Shown: positions 5,285-63,502 of the stretch, one piece after another | Layout of the letters: each line of letters starts with the position of its first letter | Numbering within the stretch: position 1 is the stretch's first letter | DNA from: a phage | Sequence record: OZ335963.1 | Strand: one strand, 5' to 3' | Length of the DNA stretch: 64,000 bases | Notes under the pieces: model-generated | What the model saw: the letters and a program-made list of their open reading frames with translations, nothing else | Databases searched by the model: none | Told to the model about the DNA's origin: nothing | Translations under genes and position numbers: made by a program

Positions 5285-5325
5285 TTTCTAATCTCCGTAA
5301 TTCTGTATCAGTAGTTGATAGTTGT

Positions 5326-5355
5326 ATAGTACCACAGTATGCTTTGGTTGTAAAC
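5326..5355 (-). promoter_or_regulatory. T4 early-type promoter upstream of motA (GTTTAC, 18-bp spacer, TACTAT)
   Basis: Minus-sense GTTTAC at 5350-5355 and TACTAT at 5326-5331 with A/T-rich upstream tract; same module recurs across the window. Confidence 0.55.
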
Positions 5356-5374
5356 CGTTTTGTGAAAAAAATTT

Positions 5375-5407
5375 TTGAAATAAAAAAGGGAGAGCCTCGG
5401 CTCTCCC
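5375..5407 (-). terminator. rho-independent terminator (UUCG-loop hairpin plus U-tract)
   Basis: gggagagcc-gagg-gctctccc stem-loop followed on minus strand by TTTTTTATTTC. Confidence 0.6.
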
Positions 5408-8322: not shown

Positions 8323-8436
8323 TCACATAAATCCAAAGTAAGCGTTTAATACATCAATCATTAAAACGATTGGGAATATACTCAAAACTACTAGTATTAT
8401 AACTACATTCCATATAGCTTTAACAATCTTTTTCAT
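8323..8436 (-). CDS. small membrane peptide, 37 aa
   Basis: MKKIVKAIWNVVIILVVLSIFPIVLMIDVLNAYFGFM downstream of GGAGGAACAG SD; the longer track ORF is read-through of the promoter. Confidence 0.35.
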   Translation of the reverse strand: MKKIVKAIWNVVIILVVLSIFPIVLMIDVLNAYFGFM

Positions 8437-8464
8437 TTTCTGTTCCTCCGTAGTTGATAGGGTA

Positions 8465-8494
8465 ATAATACCACAGAGGAACAGTCTTGTAAAC
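8465..8494 (-). promoter_or_regulatory. T4 early-type promoter (GTTTAC, 18 bp, TATTAT)
   Basis: Minus-sense GTTTAC 8489-8494, TATTAT 8465-8470. Confidence 0.5.
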
Positions 8495-8679
8495 AACTTT
8501 TTTAAAAATATTCGTAATAAATGTGAATACCAACTACTACTGCTGAAACTTGCGCAACCCACCATGCACAAGCAATAAGTACAGAATTCAAAATTTTCAT
8601 AATAACCTCATCACAAAAGTAAATACTAAACAAATCAATGGAATACTAATTAACCAAACAAAACACCACCATAATGAAC

Positions 8680-8943
8680 TCATAGTTCAATCTCAGCGAT
8701 TTTCATTTCATTACTATTAATAGCCGCTTTAAGACTATCTGAAAGAATTACATCCCAGTGGTCATTCATATGACCATTAACTAAGCGTGTAATTTCTTCG
8801 GGAGTTGAAAAATAAGGCGTATCAGACTCCCAGTGTGATAATCCCAAACGAGTATAAATCATGCCTTCATCATCGCTAGAATATTCAACTGACACAAACT
8901 CATCAGTTATTTTATGTTTAGCGTAATAAAATTTAAATTTCAT
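8680..8943 (-). CDS. hypothetical protein, 87 aa
   Basis: ORF with GGAGGAG SD directly downstream of an early promoter. Confidence 0.5.
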   Translation of the reverse strand: MKFKFYYAKHKITDEFVSVEYSSDDEGMIYTRLGLSHWESDTPYFSTPEEITRLVNGHMNDHWDVILSDSLKAAINSNEMKIAEIEL

Positions 8944-8970
8944 TTTTACTCCTCCGTAGCTGATAGTTGT

Positions 8971-9000
8971 ATAGTACCACAGTCCTTGTGGTATGTAAAC
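8971..9000 (-). promoter_or_regulatory. T4 early-type promoter (GTTTAC, 18 bp, TACTAT)
   Basis: Minus-sense GTTTAC 8995-9000, TACTAT 8971-8976. Confidence 0.5.
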
Positions 9001-9018
9001 AGTTTTGTGAAAATTTTT

Positions 9019-9576
9019 TTAAATGGAAAGATACCATCCGTTGTAGTTGCTTTTTCTTACAACCTTACGAAGGTCTTCTCTATCACCGATGAACTTCGGA
9101 GTGTACTGGATGACACCTGGGTGAATTTCTTTAGTGTTGAATATAATTATACAGTCAGCGACCTGATGATTCAGAATGGGCCCTAGATTTATTCCAGAAC
9201 CGTATGGATACTCTCCGCTGCATCCTGTTGTTACAGAAATCCAACGCGAGTCAGTTTGATGTGTCTTAACTTCTACACGAAGCCCACAGTATCTTGGATG
9301 CGCCAATACATCCCATGCGTATGTATACGGGTCATTAACATCCTCTTGGCCTTTGTTAACATACCCGCTCAGCCAATCTGCTACAAAAAACTCTGCGTAC
9401 ACCGCGATACGACATCTTTCGATAACTTCTGCTTTATCCTGGTTCGGGTTTTGTTTTAAAGAGTATCTTGCTGTATCAGCAATTTTGACCTTCATTTCAC
9501 TAGTCAAGTCACTGTTCGATAGGGTAAATGTCGGAATCTGAAATAGTCTCTGTAAACCCGGATTCGTTTTCTGCAT
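9019..9576 (-). CDS. denB: endonuclease IV DenB
   Basis: 185-aa ORF at the T4 denB position between ndd cluster and rIIB; size matches. Confidence 0.75.
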   Translation of the reverse strand: MQKTNPGLQRLFQIPTFTLSNSDLTSEMKVKIADTARYSLKQNPNQDKAEVIERCRIAVYAEFFVADWLSGYVNKGQEDVNDPYTYAWDVLAHPRYCGLRVEVKTHQTDSRWISVTTGCSGEYPYGSGINLGPILNHQVADCIIIFNTKEIHPGVIQYTPKFIGDREDLRKVVRKSNYNGWYLSI

Positions 9577-16835: not shown

Positions 16836-17006
16836 TACAATTTCCTCATTAATTGAACATTGGAGCGATGCGTTTCAGAAGAGTGGCAGCACCTTTGGCA
16901 AATTTTCCATTTTATTCTCCAAGTTATTTTCTGTATCAGTAGTTGATATTGATATAGTACCATAATCAACTACTGATGTATATAGTTTTATGAAAAAATT
17001 TAAACT

Positions 17007-22956: not shown

Positions 22957-23588
22957 TCAACTACCTCAATATCATACACTTTAAATGTTCCAAATGAATC
23001 GTGTAATTTTTCTTTTGAAATAGAAGTTATTTTATACTTTCCAATTGGAATCATCCATTCTTGTTCACGTACAATCATCATTAAGTTATCAGTACGTTCT
23101 GAATCTAATCCATCAGTATCTTCATATGTATACTTAAACTCAGTGTTAGGAGAAGAAAGTATAATATCGCTGATATGGTCAGAATAATTAAAAGCTTTAT
23201 CAGTTTTTAAGCGAAATATTATTTCAGTGGAATATTCAACATAAGAAAAACCGCATGCTGTGTGCAAACTAGTAGTAAATGAATCTACTCTGTTCGTTGA
23301 AAACACTTCTCCAGCTTGTAAATCTTTAATGAGTTCTTTTGTCGATTTTGATATACCACGATATAGCTGATAAGGCGATTTAGTTAAATGCTTTTTAACG
23401 ATTTTATTCAACTGCCGATGAAGAGCTTCATTCTTTTTGGCTTCCATACATTGCCAAAGAACTGACTGTTCAAAGTCAGTAAATTTTTCACAGACCTTTT
23501 TATACATATCATATTGAAAATCGACACTTTCAGCTTTTATAGATAACTGTTCAACATCTGCTAGATTAATAATCATGATAGCCTCCAT
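22953..23588 (-). CDS. modB: ADP-ribosyltransferase ModB
   Basis: 211-aa ORF paralogous to modA (LYRGIS ... REQEWMIP). Confidence 0.75.
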   Translation of the reverse strand: MEAIMIINLADVEQLSIKAESVDFQYDMYKKVCEKFTDFEQSVLWQCMEAKKNEALHRQLNKIVKKHLTKSPYQLYRGISKSTKELIKDLQAGEVFSTNRVDSFTTSLHTACGFSYVEYSTEIIFRLKTDKAFNYSDHISDIILSSPNTEFKYTYEDTDGLDSERTDNLMMIVREQEWMIPIGKYKITSISKEKLHDSFGTFKVYDIEVVE

Positions 23589-23602
23589 ATACTTCAGAAG
23601 CT

Positions 23603-23632
23603 ATCATATCATTGTTAGGAAGGAAAGTAAAC
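23603..23632 (-). promoter_or_regulatory. T4 early-type promoter (GTTTAC, 18 bp, TATGAT)
   Basis: Minus-sense GTTTAC 23627-23632, TATGAT 23603-23608. Confidence 0.45.
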
Positions 23633-23643
23633 AACTTTTTGAA

Positions 23644-24561
23644 TTATTTTGCCCAGGGAGCCCAGGGCGGAGGGTCAAGATGGTATGAAGCTAGTTCTTC
23701 TAGAAGAGCATCTGGGGCTTCAATTCCATAATTCTGTAATACTATACGGTACTCTTTCTTATAATCACTAGAATCATTCTGGATATTCGTAGAATGATTA
23801 TCTTCTAACATCTCAAATAAATCCATATTAATTCCTAGCGATAAAAAACCAAAATAACGATTAGCTTCAATAATCTTTCTTTCTTCTTCAGACATTCTCC
23901 AGCGTAGTCCAACATCAAAATGAGCCCAGACCATCTTAACAAATGCATTTATATCTTTAATATCTTCAATAATGAATGATTTACTTTTAGAAGGTTGACT
24001 CGCTAATTTAACTTTATCGTCTTCAAACAGGTCAAAAAGACCATATTCATGATTATCTTCTAACATCTCAAATAAATCCATATTAATTCCTAGCGATAAA
24101 AAACCAAAATAACGATTAGCTTCAATAATCTTTCTTTCTTCTTCAGACATTCTCCAGCGTAGTCCAACATCAAAATGAGCCCAGACCATCTTAACAAATG
24201 CATTTATATCTTTAATATCTTCAATAATGAATGATTTACTTTTAGAAGGTTGACTCGCTAATTTAACTTTATCGTCTTCAAACAGGTCAAAAAGACCATA
24301 TTCATGGGCTCTTTTATAGCCTTTAATAGTTAAAGCTTCAGAAGAAGAAAAAGGTGAATCAGTATTCTGCAAAATATCTTCAGTATGCTTTATAATTAGA
24401 ATAACATTTTCTGGATATTTTCTTTCTTTTATATCTTTAATTAAAAGATCCGGATTTTCTGCTAAAGGAATAATTAATGAGCACTTTTTATCAAGTGTAT
24501 TTACCGATTTACCTTCTTTGGACATAAATTCTATTGAATAATGTTTTGCTACTTCAATCAT
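23644..24561 (-). CDS. hypothetical protein, 305 aa, containing an exact internal 85-aa tandem duplication
   Basis: Continuous ORF; residues [18 protein letters not shown]...LFEMLEDNH occur twice back to back. Confidence 0.55.
23794..24306. repeat. perfect direct tandem duplication, 2 x 255 bp plus 3-bp junction microhomology
   Basis: 23794-24048 is identical to 24049-24303; ATG repeated at 24304-24306; in frame within the ORF. Confidence 0.9.
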
Positions 24562-24706
24562 GTGATTTCCTCTTGCCTACTAACGGACCATCAGGAATTT
24601 TGTTTTCCTGGATATATTTCTCATTTTCTTCCATCATTTTACTGCCAATTTTAAGAAGCAAATCCATTGCTTCATTTGCTTTAGCCTTGGCCTCTTCTAG
24701 CGTCAT
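24554..24706 (-). CDS. hypothetical protein, 50 aa
   Basis: Small ORF whose stop overlaps the downstream ATG. Confidence 0.3.
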
Positions 24707-24714
24707 ATCTCTGT

Positions 24715-24918
24715 TCACGATTTATCCCCATAGATGTCTCTCATCAATTTAAGCGCTGAGCGTTCTAATTTCTTTTCTTTCTCAGCACCAATCATTGATT
24801 TCATCCATTCTTCTGATTCGTTCTGCATTTCTTTATTTGCTTGTTCAACCCAACCATCATCAATATACATTGAGTTTGGTCTATTGAACCATTCAAGCAT
24901 TTTCTTCAGAACTTTCAT
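24715..24918 (-). CDS. hypothetical protein, 67 aa
   Basis: ORF. Confidence 0.4.
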
Positions 24919-25390
24919 TTGTTTTACCTAAAACAACAGTAGGAGCATCGTCAAATTTATGAATTTTTAGCAAATTTGGATGTAAAATATTCCACACAGA
25001 AGAAATAAAGTATGATAAAGCATCTTCACTTGCAATTATAAATTTATTTCCTTTATCTATTTTCCAACTATATACTGAATCATACGAATAAAAAGATAAA
25101 GGTTTATCATTATATTGTTCTGCGCTAACATTAATGTATTCTGATTTAGTAAATGCTTCAATTGCTCTAAACGGAATATTTGGTACAGTTTCAATAATAC
25201 CAATCTTTTTAAGTTTTATTTCAGCATCTTCTGGAACTGGCATTGAAACGAAATTTTCTACGAGATACATTGGGTCACAATAACCCTTATCAATCATTAC
25301 TGCTACGGTAATTGGAACGTCTTTAGCAAACGACAAACTATTACTGCTAATATACATTTCAAACAAAATCGCTTCCATAATTTTCCTCAA
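24893..25390 (-). CDS. hypothetical protein, ~161-165 aa
   Basis: ORF in modB-soc interval. Confidence 0.5.
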
Positions 25391-25725
25391 TCACAAGATG
25401 TAGATGAACAACTAGAATCACAAGAACTTCCACACGAATCGCCTGCCCATACATGAACAGGAACATTAGTGTCATATGAATCAGAACTAGACTGTGTATT
25501 CTGCGTATTAGATGATGCAGGTGTTGACCAGCGCCAAGGATTTTTATAATATTCTTGGGCTTCTTCATAAGTCATAGTAACTGCTTCTACTGTTCCATCT
25601 CCCATATAAACATATTCAACTACAGTTAAAGGAAGGTAGTCATTTGAAATAGGAACTACACCTTCTCCGGGAGTTGTAGAGAAAAAATCCGTAAAGAAAC
25701 TTTTAAACCAATTAAAGATAAACAT
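25387..25725 (-). CDS. hypothetical protein, 112 aa, with Cys/Ser-rich C-terminal tail
   Basis: ORF ending ...[18 protein letters not shown]. Confidence 0.45.
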
Positions 25726-25937
25726 TACAAAAAGCCTCTTTGAAATTCGACTCTTTGAAATCCACCCCAGTCAGTGTATCGCATTTCAGCATTGAACTCG
25801 ACTGAACCATCTGTATGCATCATGAATGAATGCGTGACGATATCACAATCCCAGCTTTTCATACCCCATTTATCAGAGATAGCTTTGTCAAGAACCTTCT
25901 GGAGGTCTTCATTTGGTTTAATCCAGCGATTTAACAT
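25725..25937 (-). CDS. hypothetical protein, 70 aa
   Basis: ORF downstream of an early promoter. Confidence 0.45.
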   Translation of the reverse strand: MLNRWIKPNEDLQKVLDKAISDKWGMKSWDCDIVTHSFMMHTDGSVEFNAEMRYTDWGGFQRVEFQRGFL

Positions 25938-35794: not shown

Positions 35795-36175
35795 TCACTT
35801 AGTCAAATTTTTTACACATGAATTATAAGAATTCACTACATACTCCATTGGAGCATTTTTACCAGTACGCCATTGGTAATTATTAGCCCAATTAGCCCAA
35901 AGTTCGGCGCAGTAGTTTTCAATTTTTTCTTCGCGTGTAATTACATCTGAATTACGATATGCTTGAGCAGATTCATCTGGACGAATAGCTTCGTCAAAAT
36001 TCGCCTGCATTTGTTCTACTGTCTGTTTTGGAGCTTCTTTATAACACTTGACGTTAGGATTATAAAATTTGCTTGAACAGTTTACAATTTTTCCTACATC
36101 AGATTGATTTACTACTGGTCCTTGAGCTACACAACCAGTAAGACCTAATGCAATAACCAAAATAGCGATTTTCAT
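35795..36175 (-). CDS. putative lipoprotein, 126 aa
   Basis: Start at MKIAILVIALGLTGC (lipobox) with GGAGAA SD; track ORF extends through the promoter. Confidence 0.5.
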   Translation of the reverse strand: MKIAILVIALGLTGCVAQGPVVNQSDVGKIVNCSSKFYNPNVKCYKEAPKQTVEQMQANFDEAIRPDESAQAYRNSDVITREEKIENYCAELWANWANNYQWRTGKNAPMEYVVNSYNSCVKNLTK

Positions 36176-36209
36176 TTCATTCTCCAAATTTGTATTGGTT
36201 GATAGTTGT

Positions 36210-36239
36210 ATAGTACCACAGAGGAACAGTCTTGTAAAC
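36210..36239 (-). promoter_or_regulatory. T4 early-type promoter (GTTTAC, 18 bp, TACTAT)
   Basis: Minus-sense GTTTAC 36234-36239, TACTAT 36210-36215. Confidence 0.5.
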
Positions 36240-36310
36240 AGTTTTGTGAAAAAATTTTTAATGAATTTAAAGGACCTAGAATCATCTATTTTTCCTAAGT
36301 ATAGATTTAT

Positions 36311-42441: not shown

Positions 42442-42630
42442 TTAGTCATAATAATCAGTAACAGTCCAAGCTTCATTTCTGTTGGACATTATTTTCGTAT
42501 ATTCTGCTTTAAATGCATTCTTAAGCATAGATTCAGTAACTATATGCTCTTCATTAGAAAAATTATTTCTCAGAATATATCGTTTTATTTCAGGAATAGT
42601 TAATAGATGCTGTCCAGTTGAATATTCCAT
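42442..42630 (-). CDS. hypothetical protein, 62 aa (45.2-like)
   Basis: Small ORF between gene 46 and rpbA. Confidence 0.5.
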   Translation of the reverse strand: MEYSTGQHLLTIPEIKRYILRNNFSNEEHIVTESMLKNAFKAEYTKIMSNRNEAWTVTDYYD

Positions 42631-42685
42631 GTTTTTCCTCCATAGAGATTATACTCTAATAAATTAAAGCATAATCTCTTATAAA

Positions 42686-44368
42686 TTAAACCATTACAGT
42701 AAATCGACCAACTTTCTTCATTTGAAGATGTTGACCGTATGCTTGCGGGTCATGGTCTCTATGTGAAATAACAAAAACATTAGTATTTTTTAAACTATCT
42801 AAAATAGTTGAAATAGCTTTTACGCCTTCAACATCGGTTGCTGAATCAAAAACTTCATCAAGAATTAATGTGTTTATTTTAACACCTGAAACTTTTTCGG
42901 CAATATCACGCCAAGTAAATAAAAGAGCAATATCAATTCGTGCTTTTTCACCTTGACTGAATGAAGCATAACTAAAATCTTCACGACCACGGGATTTAAT
43001 TGTCTCATTAAATTCTTCATCTAATGTAAACACATAATCCGCTTCCATTATTTTAAGATAATGGTTAATCTGCTTATTAAATAATGGAATGTACTTTTTA
43101 ATAATAGCACCTTTAATACCAGAATCTTTGAGCATATCAGTCAAAATTCCTCTGTGGTATTTTTCCATTACTAAATTAGTTTTTGTCTTAACAATTTTAT
43201 CAAGTTCTTCTTGAAGCAGTGCTATTTCATCAGCATGGTCAATAAACTCGGATGATGCTTTTTCTATAGCTGCTTTAACTTTTTTAGCTTTATCTACCGT
43301 CGTGATTAGAGATTGCTTTTTATTGCGAATATCATTCGCCAACGTCTGCTGGGTTTTAATATTATCTCGGTATTCATCAACGAGAACTTTTAAATTATCA
43401 CGATGTGTTGAAAGCTGTTCAAACGAATGCGTGCATTCAGAAACTTTATCTTTAATTTTAGAAACAACTTTATCACCGGAACTTAATTGTGACAAACAGG
43501 TTGGACATAATCCACCTTCGTGATACATATTAATGACTTTATTATACGAGTCAATTTTTGATTTAATTAAAAATGCTTCTTGACCGATTTTATTAAATGC
43601 ATCAGTGGGGTCTTCATCCAAAACAATATTAACTAATCTTTCATTAGCTTCTTCTATTTCCGATTTTAGCGTTCTAGCTTCTTTTGCCAAATCATCATAC
43701 ATATTCTGCAGACGAGTAAGGTTATCACCGGTTAATTTTTTCTGACGTTCAACGTTATCATTATATATTTTAATTTGTTGGATAATACTATCTTTTTTAA
43801 CATCAAGCACTTGGTTTTGTGAATTTAATTCACGTATTAGTGCTTTATTAAGCTTATCCATTTCAGCTAATGTTCCTACCTCGAGTAGGTCTTCGACAAG
43901 CTTTCTTCTTGCAGGAGTGGATAGGCCCATAAAAGGGGTATATCCAGCCGTGCCGAGTACGACGATCTGTTTGAAACTGGCGTATGACATTCCGATAAGC
44001 TGTTCAAATTCTGCTTGGAAATCTTTACTGCTGGCAGATTCATTAAGACGTGTACCGTTAACGGTGATTTCGAAAACATTCGGTTTTTGTCCTCTTTTGA
44101 TATAGTACTTTTTCTCATCATATTCCATCCACAGTTCAACTAAAAGTTCTTTCTTATTTGTGCTGTTTATTAATTGACCTTTCTTTACATCACGAAATGG
44201 CTTGCCAAAAAGCCCAAATGTGATGGCTTCTAACATAGTAGACTTACCACCGCCATTTCGTCCAGTAATAAGAGTTTTTTGAACCTTATCTAGTTGAATG
44301 TCAATAGGATTTCCACCTACTGACATTATATTTTGATACCTAACTCGGTTTAGTTTAAAATTCTTCAC
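42686..44368 (-). CDS. 46: recombination endonuclease subunit gp46 (Rad50/SbcC-like)
   Basis: 560-aa ORF; Walker A GRNGGGKST; long coiled-coil middle; zinc-hook CPTC. Confidence 0.9.
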   Translation of the reverse strand: MKNFKLNRVRYQNIMSVGGNPIDIQLDKVQKTLITGRNGGGKSTMLEAITFGLFGKPFRDVKKGQLINSTNKKELLVELWMEYDEKKYYIKRGQKPNVFEITVNGTRLNESASSKDFQAEFEQLIGMSYASFKQIVVLGTAGYTPFMGLSTPARRKLVEDLLEVGTLAEMDKLNKALIRELNSQNQVLDVKKDSIIQQIKIYNDNVERQKKLTGDNLTRLQNMYDDLAKEARTLKSEIEEANERLVNIVLDEDPTDAFNKIGQEAFLIKSKIDSYNKVINMYHEGGLCPTCLSQLSSGDKVVSKIKDKVSECTHSFEQLSTHRDNLKVLVDEYRDNIKTQQTLANDIRNKKQSLITTVDKAKKVKAAIEKASSEFIDHADEIALLQEELDKIVKTKTNLVMEKYHRGILTDMLKDSGIKGAIIKKYIPLFNKQINHYLKIMEADYVFTLDEEFNETIKSRGREDFSYASFSQGEKARIDIALLFTWRDIAEKVSGVKINTLILDEVFDSATDVEGVKAISTILDSLKNTNVFVISHRDHDPQAYGQHLQMKKVGRFTVMV

Positions 44369-60977: not shown

Positions 60978-61505
60978 TTATGCGAGTACCGTCTTTAACC
61001 GTTCTTCAAACTTCCGAAGAGTATTTTGGCGTTCAGCTCTTTGCTTTTTGTAAGTTTCAATACGCTCTGAAATGAGAGAGTATCGTTCATTTACTGATTC
61101 TTTCATAAAATCAGGAATTTCACGAGAAGCTTTAATCTCGTCAAATTTATCAATAACAGCTTGCTCTTCAGCAATTAAGTTATCATACATTAAAATATCT
61201 TTCTTGATGAACTCAATATCTTCTTGAGTTACACGAGATAATTTAGATGCTTTATCCTTTTTGTACTGTTCGTTAGTATCACGAGACCAGTGTAATGTAC
61301 GATTTTTATTCGTATTTTTGTAAATTTCTACAATACCGATCTCATCAATAATAACGATCCAATTCCAACGGGATTTGTAAATTTGTCCTCCATCAACAGT
61401 GATTTCACCTCCGATTGAGATGTCATTAAAGAACTTGCTTTGTGCTTCAGATTTAAATTTACCATCATTGTAATTTACCAAGTTGAAAATATCTTTAGCG
61501 TTCAT
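60978..61505 (-). CDS. hypothetical protein, 175 aa, C-terminal coiled coil
   Basis: ORF after early promoter; tail ...ERIETYKKQRAERQNTLRKFEERLKTVLA. Confidence 0.5.
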   Translation of the reverse strand: MNAKDIFNLVNYNDGKFKSEAQSKFFNDISIGGEITVDGGQIYKSRWNWIVIIDEIGIVEIYKNTNKNRTLHWSRDTNEQYKKDKASKLSRVTQEDIEFIKKDILMYDNLIAEEQAVIDKFDEIKASREIPDFMKESVNERYSLISERIETYKKQRAERQNTLRKFEERLKTVLA

Positions 61506-61525
61506 TTTCTGTTCCTCCGTAGTTG

Positions 61526-61555
61526 ATAGAGTAATAATACCACAGAGGAACAGTC
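61526..61555 (-). promoter_or_regulatory. T4 early-type promoter (GTTTAC, 18 bp, TATTAT) with SD-complementary spacer
   Basis: Minus-sense GTTTAC 61550-61555, TATTAT 61526-61531; spacer CTGTTCCTC complementary to downstream SD GGAGGAACAG. Confidence 0.5.
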
Positions 61556-61565
61556 TTGTAAACCA

Positions 61566-61880
61566 CTAAAAGAAACTTCTTTCACAATTTTTTCCACTGA
61601 ACCATGCACTTACCGCTTTCTTAGTCTCAGGAGCAGTGTTATCCATAAACCATTCAAAGGCAGCCTTTTTATGATTCTGGAGGGCTTCTCGGGCTTTAAT
61701 CTGTTCACGGTCTATTAACACTAACATATGAGCCTTTCTTGTCACCATGGGCTTCTTATGATTTTTTGAATACTCCCAATCATTTGTCCATCGCATTGTC
61801 GTTGCGAACTGAAATACTGCTTCTTTAATTTTAGTTTCGTAAATTTCACGAGCCTTTGAGTATAACATCACTACCTCCAT
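61566..61880 (-). CDS. hypothetical protein, ~100 aa
   Basis: ORF. Confidence 0.45.
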   Translation of the reverse strand: MEVVMLYSKAREIYETKIKEAVFQFATTMRWTNDWEYSKNHKKPMVTRKAHMLVLIDREQIKAREALQNHKKAAFEWFMDNTAPETKKAVSAWFSGKNCERSFF

Positions 61881-63271: not shown

Positions 63272-63417
63272 TGATTCTGCTCCAAATATGTTTCTATAAT
63301 TTTCTGAGCGAGATAAACTGCGTTATCTTCAGTTGCGTCTTCTAAGAAATTTTCAAAATAAGCTGAAATTTCTTCTGTGTCAATCAACTTTTTTACTTCA
63401 ATTAACGTAGTTTTCAT
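63268..63417 (-). CDS. hypothetical protein, 49 aa
   Basis: Start at MKTTLIEVKK... after early promoter; track ORF extends through the promoter. Confidence 0.4.
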   Translation of the reverse strand: MKTTLIEVKKLIDTEEISAYFENFLEDATEDNAVYLAQKIIETYLEQNQ

Positions 63418-63451
63418 TTTATTCCCCAAATCCGTATCAGTTGATAGTTGT

Positions 63452-63481
63452 ATAGTACCATAAAGCTTTATGCTTGTAAAC
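63452..63481 (-). promoter_or_regulatory. T4 early-type promoter (GTTTAC, 18 bp, TACTAT)
   Basis: Minus-sense GTTTAC 63476-63481, TACTAT 63452-63457; paralogous to the motA promoter cassette. Confidence 0.55.
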
Positions 63482-63502
63482 CGTTTTGTGAAAAAATTTT
63501 TG

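Follow-up and report, generated by a model that had tools for sequence, protein, structure and literature searches.

An open reading frame of 305 codons, lying next to modB in the 64-kb stretch of phage DNA analyzed here (the window), contains a perfect tandem repeat of 255 nucleotides. The locus raises two questions: whether the long frame is a gene, and whether the repeat exists in the phage or only in its sequence record. The preliminary description of this DNA had offered a very recent event or an assembly artefact as the two possible origins of the repeat, and that alternative remains the real one.

Geometry of the repeat and anatomy of the reading frame

Tandem Repeats Finder reported a perfect head-to-tail array at positions 23794–24306, with a period of 255 nucleotides, 2.0 copies, 100% matches, no indels and a score of 1026. 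Direct comparison indicated that the two copies are string-identical and follow one another without a spacer (Table 1). A perfect repeat of 255 nucleotides makes an origin by chance impossible. The identity runs exactly three nucleotides past the two full units, into an ATG, and the bases immediately to the left of the two copies differ (left flank, TTCGTAGA/ATGATT; junction, CATATTC/ATGATT; right flank, CATATTC/ATGGGC, where the slash marks the boundary; in its longer form the copy–copy junction reads AAAAGACCATATTC/ATGATTATCTTC). The same ATG stands at both unit starts and again just after copy 2. On the coding strand it reads CAT, which encodes His86 in modA.3 and His11 in modA.2. Identity of at least 3 nucleotides at the junction is expected in 7.7% of arbitrary 255-bp duplications in the window (∼1 in 13).

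A repeat scan found no tandem repeat other than this array in the 64-kb window, and ∼221 kb of related loci contained no perfect tandem duplication at any period from 30 to 1500 nucleotides. The window's other direct-repeat families consist of dispersed elements of 30–90 nucleotides with a resemblance to T4 early promoters. Dispersed direct repeats of 67–91 nucleotides are located at 5285–5375, 8424–8514, 8930–9020, 16929–17001, 36169–36259, 61501–61567 and 63411–63501; the sequence of this family (…GTTGATAGTTGTATAGTACCACAG…TTGTAAAC…) resembles, on its minus strand, T4 early promoter regions, as is normal for this type of genome, and is unrelated to the duplication.

Table 1. Coordinates of the repeat, of the reading frame that contains it and of associated features in the window.
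Feature	Position	Strand	Content or evidence
Fused, duplicated ORF, 305 aa, 35.6 kDa	23644–24561	−	Translation and profile matches
modA.3, codons 1–154	24100–24561	−	98.7% identical to JE01 ModA.3; T4_MRH member
Intact modA.2 CDS, 60 aa	23644–23826	−	100% identical to JE01 ModA.2; annotated in T4 and PP01
Duplication copy 1 (adjoining the rest of modA.2)	23794–24048	−	Identical to 24049–24303; encodes ORF aa 172–256
Duplication copy 2 (upstream copy in the direction of transcription)	24049–24303	−	Encodes ORF aa 87–171
ATG microhomology, 3 nt	24304–24306; same ATG at 23794–23796 and 24049–24051		Sequence; both ATGs present in single-copy PP01
A6 run (coding strand T6), copy 1	23843–23848		+1 relative to A5 in relatives; PP01 alignment
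A6 run, copy 2	24098–24103		Sequence
Second (duplicated) modA.2 start region	24079–24092	−	ATG 24079–24081; AGGA 24088–24091; out-of-frame modA.3 TAG remnant 24090–24092

In T4, PP01, SH-2, JE01 and ten more contigs from isolates or metagenomes, the corresponding region is occupied by two minus-strand genes: modA.3, which encodes 156 amino acids (160 in a variant with a 12-nucleotide insertion), and modA.2, which encodes 60. The two are separated in these relatives by the TAG stop codon of modA.3 and an 8-nucleotide spacer, with an AGGA ribosome-binding site that overlaps the stop. ModA.3 belongs to the Pfam family T4_MRH (PF24070, E = 3.4e-38) and to PHROG 1234, and is therefore a paralogue of Mrh, whereas ModA.2 falls into PHROG 1647 and Pfam PF26838 (Phage_T4_Y01E). 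Both are small early genes without demonstrated function, for which a literature search returned spurious matches only. Their home, the gene 39–56 early region, can be deleted in T4 and is dispensable (PMC8262927).

The names under which these genes are deposited vary. Many T4-like genomes in GenBank that match positions 23500–24700 (for example MG775043, PQ871103 and PQ471460) label modA.2, modA.3 and modA.4 ‘molybdenum ABC transporter, periplasmic molybdenum-binding protein ModA’, a mix-up with the bacterial gene name modA that has been spread by annotation pipelines. RefSeq calls modA.3 ‘Mrh transcription modulator’, although it is merely a paralogue of Mrh.

Alignment of the collapsed window allele to PP01 revealed one additional A in a homopolymer run within the unit (GATAAAAAACC, with A6 at 23843–23848, versus GATAAAAACC). 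On the coding strand, GGT TTT TAT CGC TAG (…GFYR*) becomes GGT TTT TTA TCG CTA GGA ATT AAT ATG (…GFLSLGIN-M…), so that the modA.3 TAG falls out of frame and modA.3 is fused to modA.2. The run lies 49 nucleotides within the duplicated unit, and both copies have it. The ‘305-aa ORF’ is thus no natural gene, being created by a private +1 insertion inside the unit.

Its layout is as follows: ModA.3 residues 1–154, the linker LSLGIN, ModA.2 residues 1–11, ModA.3 residues 87–154, a second LSLGIN and ModA.2 residues 1–60. The first 86 residues, ending at His86, are the unique N-terminal part of ModA.3; the segment encoded by copy 2 (ModA.3 87–154, linker and ModA.2 1–11) ends at His11, the segment encoded by copy 1 has the same content, and residues 257–305 supply the rest of ModA.2. 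At the level of DNA each unit contains modA.3 codons 87–154 (the 3′ 44% of that gene), the disabled stop codon and ribosome-binding site, the six-codon linker and modA.2 codons 1–11. A unit composed of ∼42% of the T4_MRH domain, disabled signals and the start of another gene corresponds neither to a domain duplication nor to a gene duplication.

Profile searches resolved the same parts. The 305-aa ORF matched T4_MRH with 167.2 bits (gathering cut-off 24.4; E = 2.5e-49) over residues 5–147 and again in a second, partial stretch, and matched PHROG 1234 in two stretches (E = 4.9e-70); residues 246–305 covered the full profile of PHROG 1647 (positions 1–62 of 62, E = 4e-32). A tblastn search of the window with JE01 ModA.3 likewise gave two matches, of query residues 1–154 at 24561–24100 and of residues 86–154 at 24051–23845. 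The N-terminal 154 and C-terminal 60 residues of the ORF are 97–100% identical to ModA.3 and ModA.2 of close relatives.

The predicted product of the sequence as recorded is a 35.6-kDa ModA.3–ModA.2 chimera in which half of the Mrh-like domain occurs twice. The intact modA.2 keeps its own AGGA (23833–23836) and ATG (23824–23826), and free ModA.2 is probably made from this retained ribosome-binding site; the duplicated modA.2 start region could also initiate a chimera of 145 residues. No promoter or terminator signal above chance was found inside the unit. Structure prediction for the 305-aa product returned a mean pLDDT of 52.6, with values below 50 across residues 132–262 (low confidence), and no PDB relatives were found.

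These results uphold much of the preliminary description: the duplication is confirmed as perfect by both the repeat finder and the string comparison, the 3-bp ATG microhomology is found where it had been placed, and the ORF does adjoin modB. Two further statements hold in part. The duplication of 85 codons inside a 305-aa ORF is correct in length and frame, but what had been taken for one ORF is in relatives two genes, fused here by the extra A. The repeat had also been said to lengthen the protein without disrupting it, which is true of the reading frame only, as the product would be a chimera with a repeated half-domain and the unit spans a gene boundary.

The single-copy allele in related phages

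The window belongs to a Tequatrovirus (T4-like) phage. A 1.2-kb query around the repeat matched 538 phage records, the best with 98.7% identity; identity to the closest genomes falls to 96–97% over 24 kb, and exact-protein look-ups with the 305-aa ORF, Mrh and gp61 returned no record. The phage is therefore a distinct strain, not represented in collections. Contigs whose ModB or Dda matches exactly belong to other strains, which carry single-copy alleles.

Comparison with related phages, a check that the preliminary description had proposed, located the single-copy allele. Among the top matches listed, 40 of 40 spanned ∼945 bp for the 1201-bp query, and two anchors that are 513 nucleotides apart in the window are separated by 257 or 269 nucleotides in 14 related loci. 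The single-copy sequence of PP01 has an ATG at the start of the unit and another just after its end, of which one is kept at the window's junction.

Outside the window, neither lesion was recovered. The exact 33-mer across the junction was absent from IMG/VR, JGI metagenomes and GTDB genomes, and BLAST with a 40-nucleotide junction probe found nothing in 50,697 phage records or in E. coli genomes, under an E-value limit that a perfect 30-mer passed in a control. The homopolymer run is five nucleotides long in all 14 comparison loci (L001–L014). A 50-mer containing A6 was found in 0 of 502 matching phage records, and an exact A6 30-mer in no phage record, versus 248 records matched by the A5 control 30-mer (154 of them exactly); in IMG/VR the A5 form is present and the A6 form absent. 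Matches to an A6 20-mer in metagenome and GTDB contigs were rejected as chance, with only 20–27 nucleotides in common with the window in otherwise unrelated DNA.

A different change in length does occur naturally at this locus. Some relatives (L004 3260–3742, L005 2854–3336 and P0001) carry a 12-nucleotide in-frame insertion in modA.3 that extends its product to 160 residues. The site of this insertion corresponds to positions ∼24010–24020 and ∼24265–24275 of the window, within the duplicated segment (…KVKLALNLAGQP… versus …KVKLASQP…), indicating that this part of ModA.3 tolerates variation in length.

At the protein level, the fused or duplicated form was found neither among 1.84 billion representative proteins, where ModA.3-like sequences measure 145–160 residues and ModA.2-like sequences 54–64, nor among about 500 relatives. 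The representative proteins include one that is 95% identical to the 305-aa ORF. A highly repetitive protein of 1356 residues (P0010), which matched residues 26–69 of the query in 14 stretches (E = 3.9e-8), was rejected as a homologue, the match being an artefact of composition and repetition.

These comparisons bear on one possible reading of the locus, in which the 305-aa frame would represent a family with a natural architecture of two internal repeats. All that speaks for it is the in-frame length of the repeat. Against it stand the complete lack of nucleotide divergence between the copies, a unit that straddles two genes and includes the remains of a stop codon and ribosome-binding site, the single-copy, two-gene arrangement of all relatives, and the lack of any homologue above 160 residues except for the one spurious repetitive match. 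We consider such an architecture vanishingly improbable: an evolved protein repeat is refuted by the PP01 alignment, the representative-protein search and the single-copy, two-gene relatives, and, with the junction, the fusion and the duplication absent from all other sequences searched, neither an evolved repeat nor a conserved fusion is tenable.

Recent event or assembly artefact

The sequence around the repeat is otherwise in good order. When 82 JE01 proteins were compared with the window by tblastn, all those with an ortholog there matched it in a single frame, most over their full length, and only ModA.3 gave two matches within its own locus. A census of DNA indels relative to JE01 revealed no uncompensated coding frameshift in the window apart from that of modA.3, and the other ∼80 genes are intact. 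Within the ∼3 kb from modA to mrh, five positions of the window are shared by none of 14 relatives, namely four single-nucleotide substitutions and the A insertion.

Several differences from JE01 of other kinds were also observed. Directly upstream of the modA.x cluster lies a local mosaic or divergent patch, in which Mrh (mrh, 24896–25378) is 79% and Mrh.2 (mrh.1/mrh.2, 25447–25937) 57% identical to its JE01 counterpart, versus 96–100% for flanking genes. A homing-endonuclease gene of JE01 (L003 43193–43909), situated between a 63-aa ORF (L003 42950–43141) and gene 46, is missing from the window at ∼42627–42695, and the C-terminal end of gp46 differs from that of JE01 (query residues 1–558 of 562 aligned).

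The only frameshift in the 64-kb window therefore falls inside its only tandem repeat, a coincidence with a probability of ∼0.004 if the two were independent. Frameshift and repeat therefore share a cause. The coincidence suggests a local problem of sequence quality and counts against a real event. We regard an error of assembly or finishing as a substantial possibility, in which two contig ends (or both ends of one circular contig, the genome being circularly permuted) had 255 bp in common and were joined or rotated untrimmed, so that the shared segment was written twice. The A6 run would then reflect a consensus error, or else a minority variant, at the same weak spot, and the phage itself would have a single copy, probably with A5 and with normal modA.3 and modA.2. 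The complete identity of the copies, including the private +1 insertion, and the restriction of both the junction and A6 to this one record are what such an overlap would produce, and the 3-nucleotide match at the junction is compatible with chance at the frequency calculated above.

Circular contigs from de Bruijn assemblers carry k bases repeated at their ends. In this respect the value of 255, which is the largest k-mer available in MEGAHIT, lends faint support to an untrimmed overlap; the option ‘--k-max 255’ appears in eight of the papers searched, one of them on a phage virome. The usual overlaps are 55, 77, 99, 127 or 141 nucleotides, and k = 255 is so rare that the coincidence carries little weight. 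The lack of assembly or homopolymer errors in the rest of the window also speaks against an artefact, and the ATG microhomology mildly favors a biological event. A simple contig break at a variant bubble was considered and rejected, since such a break would put the variant at the margin of the overlap, whereas it lies 49 nucleotides within the unit.

Graph (de Bruijn) assemblers presumably rarely invent internal junctions without support from reads. The clean assembly elsewhere, the presence of an ATG at both boundaries in the single-copy ancestor, the 7.7% chance of such a match and the dispensable locus likewise argue that the phage DNA itself may carry the duplication. We tentatively favor, at a confidence somewhat short of even, a real, very recent and selectively unimportant tandem duplication; this reading includes the case of a real duplication combined with an erroneous consensus call at A6. 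In that case the true unit would be 254 bp long and both genes would be intact, accompanied by a chimeric ORF of 81 residues. The simulated products with A5 in both runs are an intact ModA.3 of 156 residues, the 81-aa chimera and an intact ModA.2 of 60 residues.

If both lesions are real, the presence of A6 in both copies indicates that the +1 slip preceded the duplication. The first step would have been a slip of one nucleotide in the T5 run, two codons before the modA.3 stop. In a second step, the two 3-nucleotide ATG minihomologies, 255 nucleotides apart, would have paired, either by template switching or by unequal UvsX-mediated pairing. In the course of break repair or of replication that depends on recombination, a 3′ terminus ending in the downstream ATG could pair with the upstream ATG, extend and recopy the unit, leaving one ATG at the new junction. 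The location within the dispensable 39–56 region would allow the duplication to be tolerated, and the extra 255 bp should be negligible for headful packaging.

In view of T4 recombination, copies of 255 bp are expected to recombine with each other, with loss of one unit at an appreciable rate per cycle. Taken together with the zero divergence between the copies, this expected loss places the putative origin of the duplication at or shortly before plaque purification. The need for so recent an origin is itself a point against a real event. Recombination dependent on UvsX operates in T4 on minihomologies of as few as 3–4 nucleotides (PMC8262927), and T4 forms duplications, tandem amplifications and deletions at short homologies that are typically 6–10 nucleotides long, with 3 nucleotides as the reported minimum (PMC9391042). 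Tandem duplication, to which the preliminary description had appealed as a known, unstable class of T-even mutation, is thus borne out in its short-homology form by both studies. The 3 nucleotides at the present junction equal the minimal homology for T4 and would be met by chance about once in 13 duplications, which weighs against a real event.

It is also conceivable, though improbable in our estimate, that the phage truly carries the +1 fusion and the duplication, and that selection favored both because they alter ModA.3 or ModA.2. The gain could lie, for instance, in evading a host defence that recognizes either protein, or in a useful new chimeric early protein. The clustering of two private mutations within the same 255 bp is a classic sign of selection, the frame remains open through 305 codons, and adaptation of T4 through microhomology-based amplification has been documented (PMC9391042). 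The known adaptive amplifications, however, carry whole genes, whereas this unit contains no complete gene or domain, only ∼42% of T4_MRH and 11 codons of modA.2. The fused or duplicated form is absent from the representative proteins and relatives searched, and the structure model, with its low pLDDT, gives no sign of a foldable extra module. A T4 ‘accordion’ amplification like that at dmd-tifA was rejected as well, because it requires a complete gene with its expression signals inside the unit, which here holds only modA.3 codons 87–154 and modA.2 codons 1–11. The more specific proposition that selection acted on a genuine fusion and a genuine partial duplication, yielding a new 35.6-kDa chimera of a Mrh-like domain, a repeated half-domain and ModA.2, is a shade less credible again. 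Presumed neutrality is part of the reading that we prefer, in which a duplication of this kind would have had little consequence for the phage.

The duplication is a strain-private lesion, or an error, of a well-known kind, unconserved and without evidence of function, and it has little import beyond this one genome. If real, it adds to the examples of T4 making and losing duplications where homology is very short, the genes affected here being two that are dispensable. Should it prove an artefact, 255 bp would have to be trimmed from the record and the homopolymer probably corrected, and the ‘305-aa protein’ should stay out of databases as a new ModA.3–ModA.2 fusion. Were the adaptive explanation true, the locus would offer a snapshot of the birth of a gene fusion or new architecture, or of escape from a defence, in a wild T4-like phage. 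For annotation, the lesson is that a perfect internal repeat that holds a region's only frameshift calls for inspection of the reads ahead of any annotation.

Comparison with known systems

The closest parallels among real events are the short-homology duplications of T4, at rII and at dmd-tifA (Srikant et al. 2022, PMC9391042). These are likewise head-to-tail direct repeats in a Tequatrovirus, arising from an ancestor with short flanking homology of which one copy is left at the junction, and they are recent, unstable and unconserved. They differ from the window's duplication in scale and in selection: the rII and dmd-tifA cases involve whole genes and lengths of 0.7 kb to several kb, are often present in more than two copies, are selected for dosage and typically use 6–10 bp of homology, whereas the present duplication has 255 bp, no complete gene, two copies, 3 bp of homology and no known selection.

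The UvsX-dependent minihomology recombination described by Wu et al. (2021, PMC8262927) resembles the junction more closely. It uses identities of 3–4 nucleotides in dispensable regions that include 39–56, and forms precise junctions in which one copy of the minihomology is retained. It was described, however, for deletions that follow CRISPR-induced breaks, whereas the window contains a duplication with no known source of a break.

An untrimmed overlap of contig ends shares with the window a perfect, undiverged tandem duplicate that is unique to one record, and any consensus error nearby would be carried into each unit. It differs in that the typical overlap equals the k-mer of the assembler (55–141) and is situated at the ends of a record unless the latter has been rotated, and in that microhomology would be present by chance only. 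The proteins themselves are equally familiar: members of the T4 Mrh/ModA.3 family (PF24070) and ModA.2 (PF26838, PHROG 1647) are separate proteins in all other genomes, and are fused and partly duplicated here.
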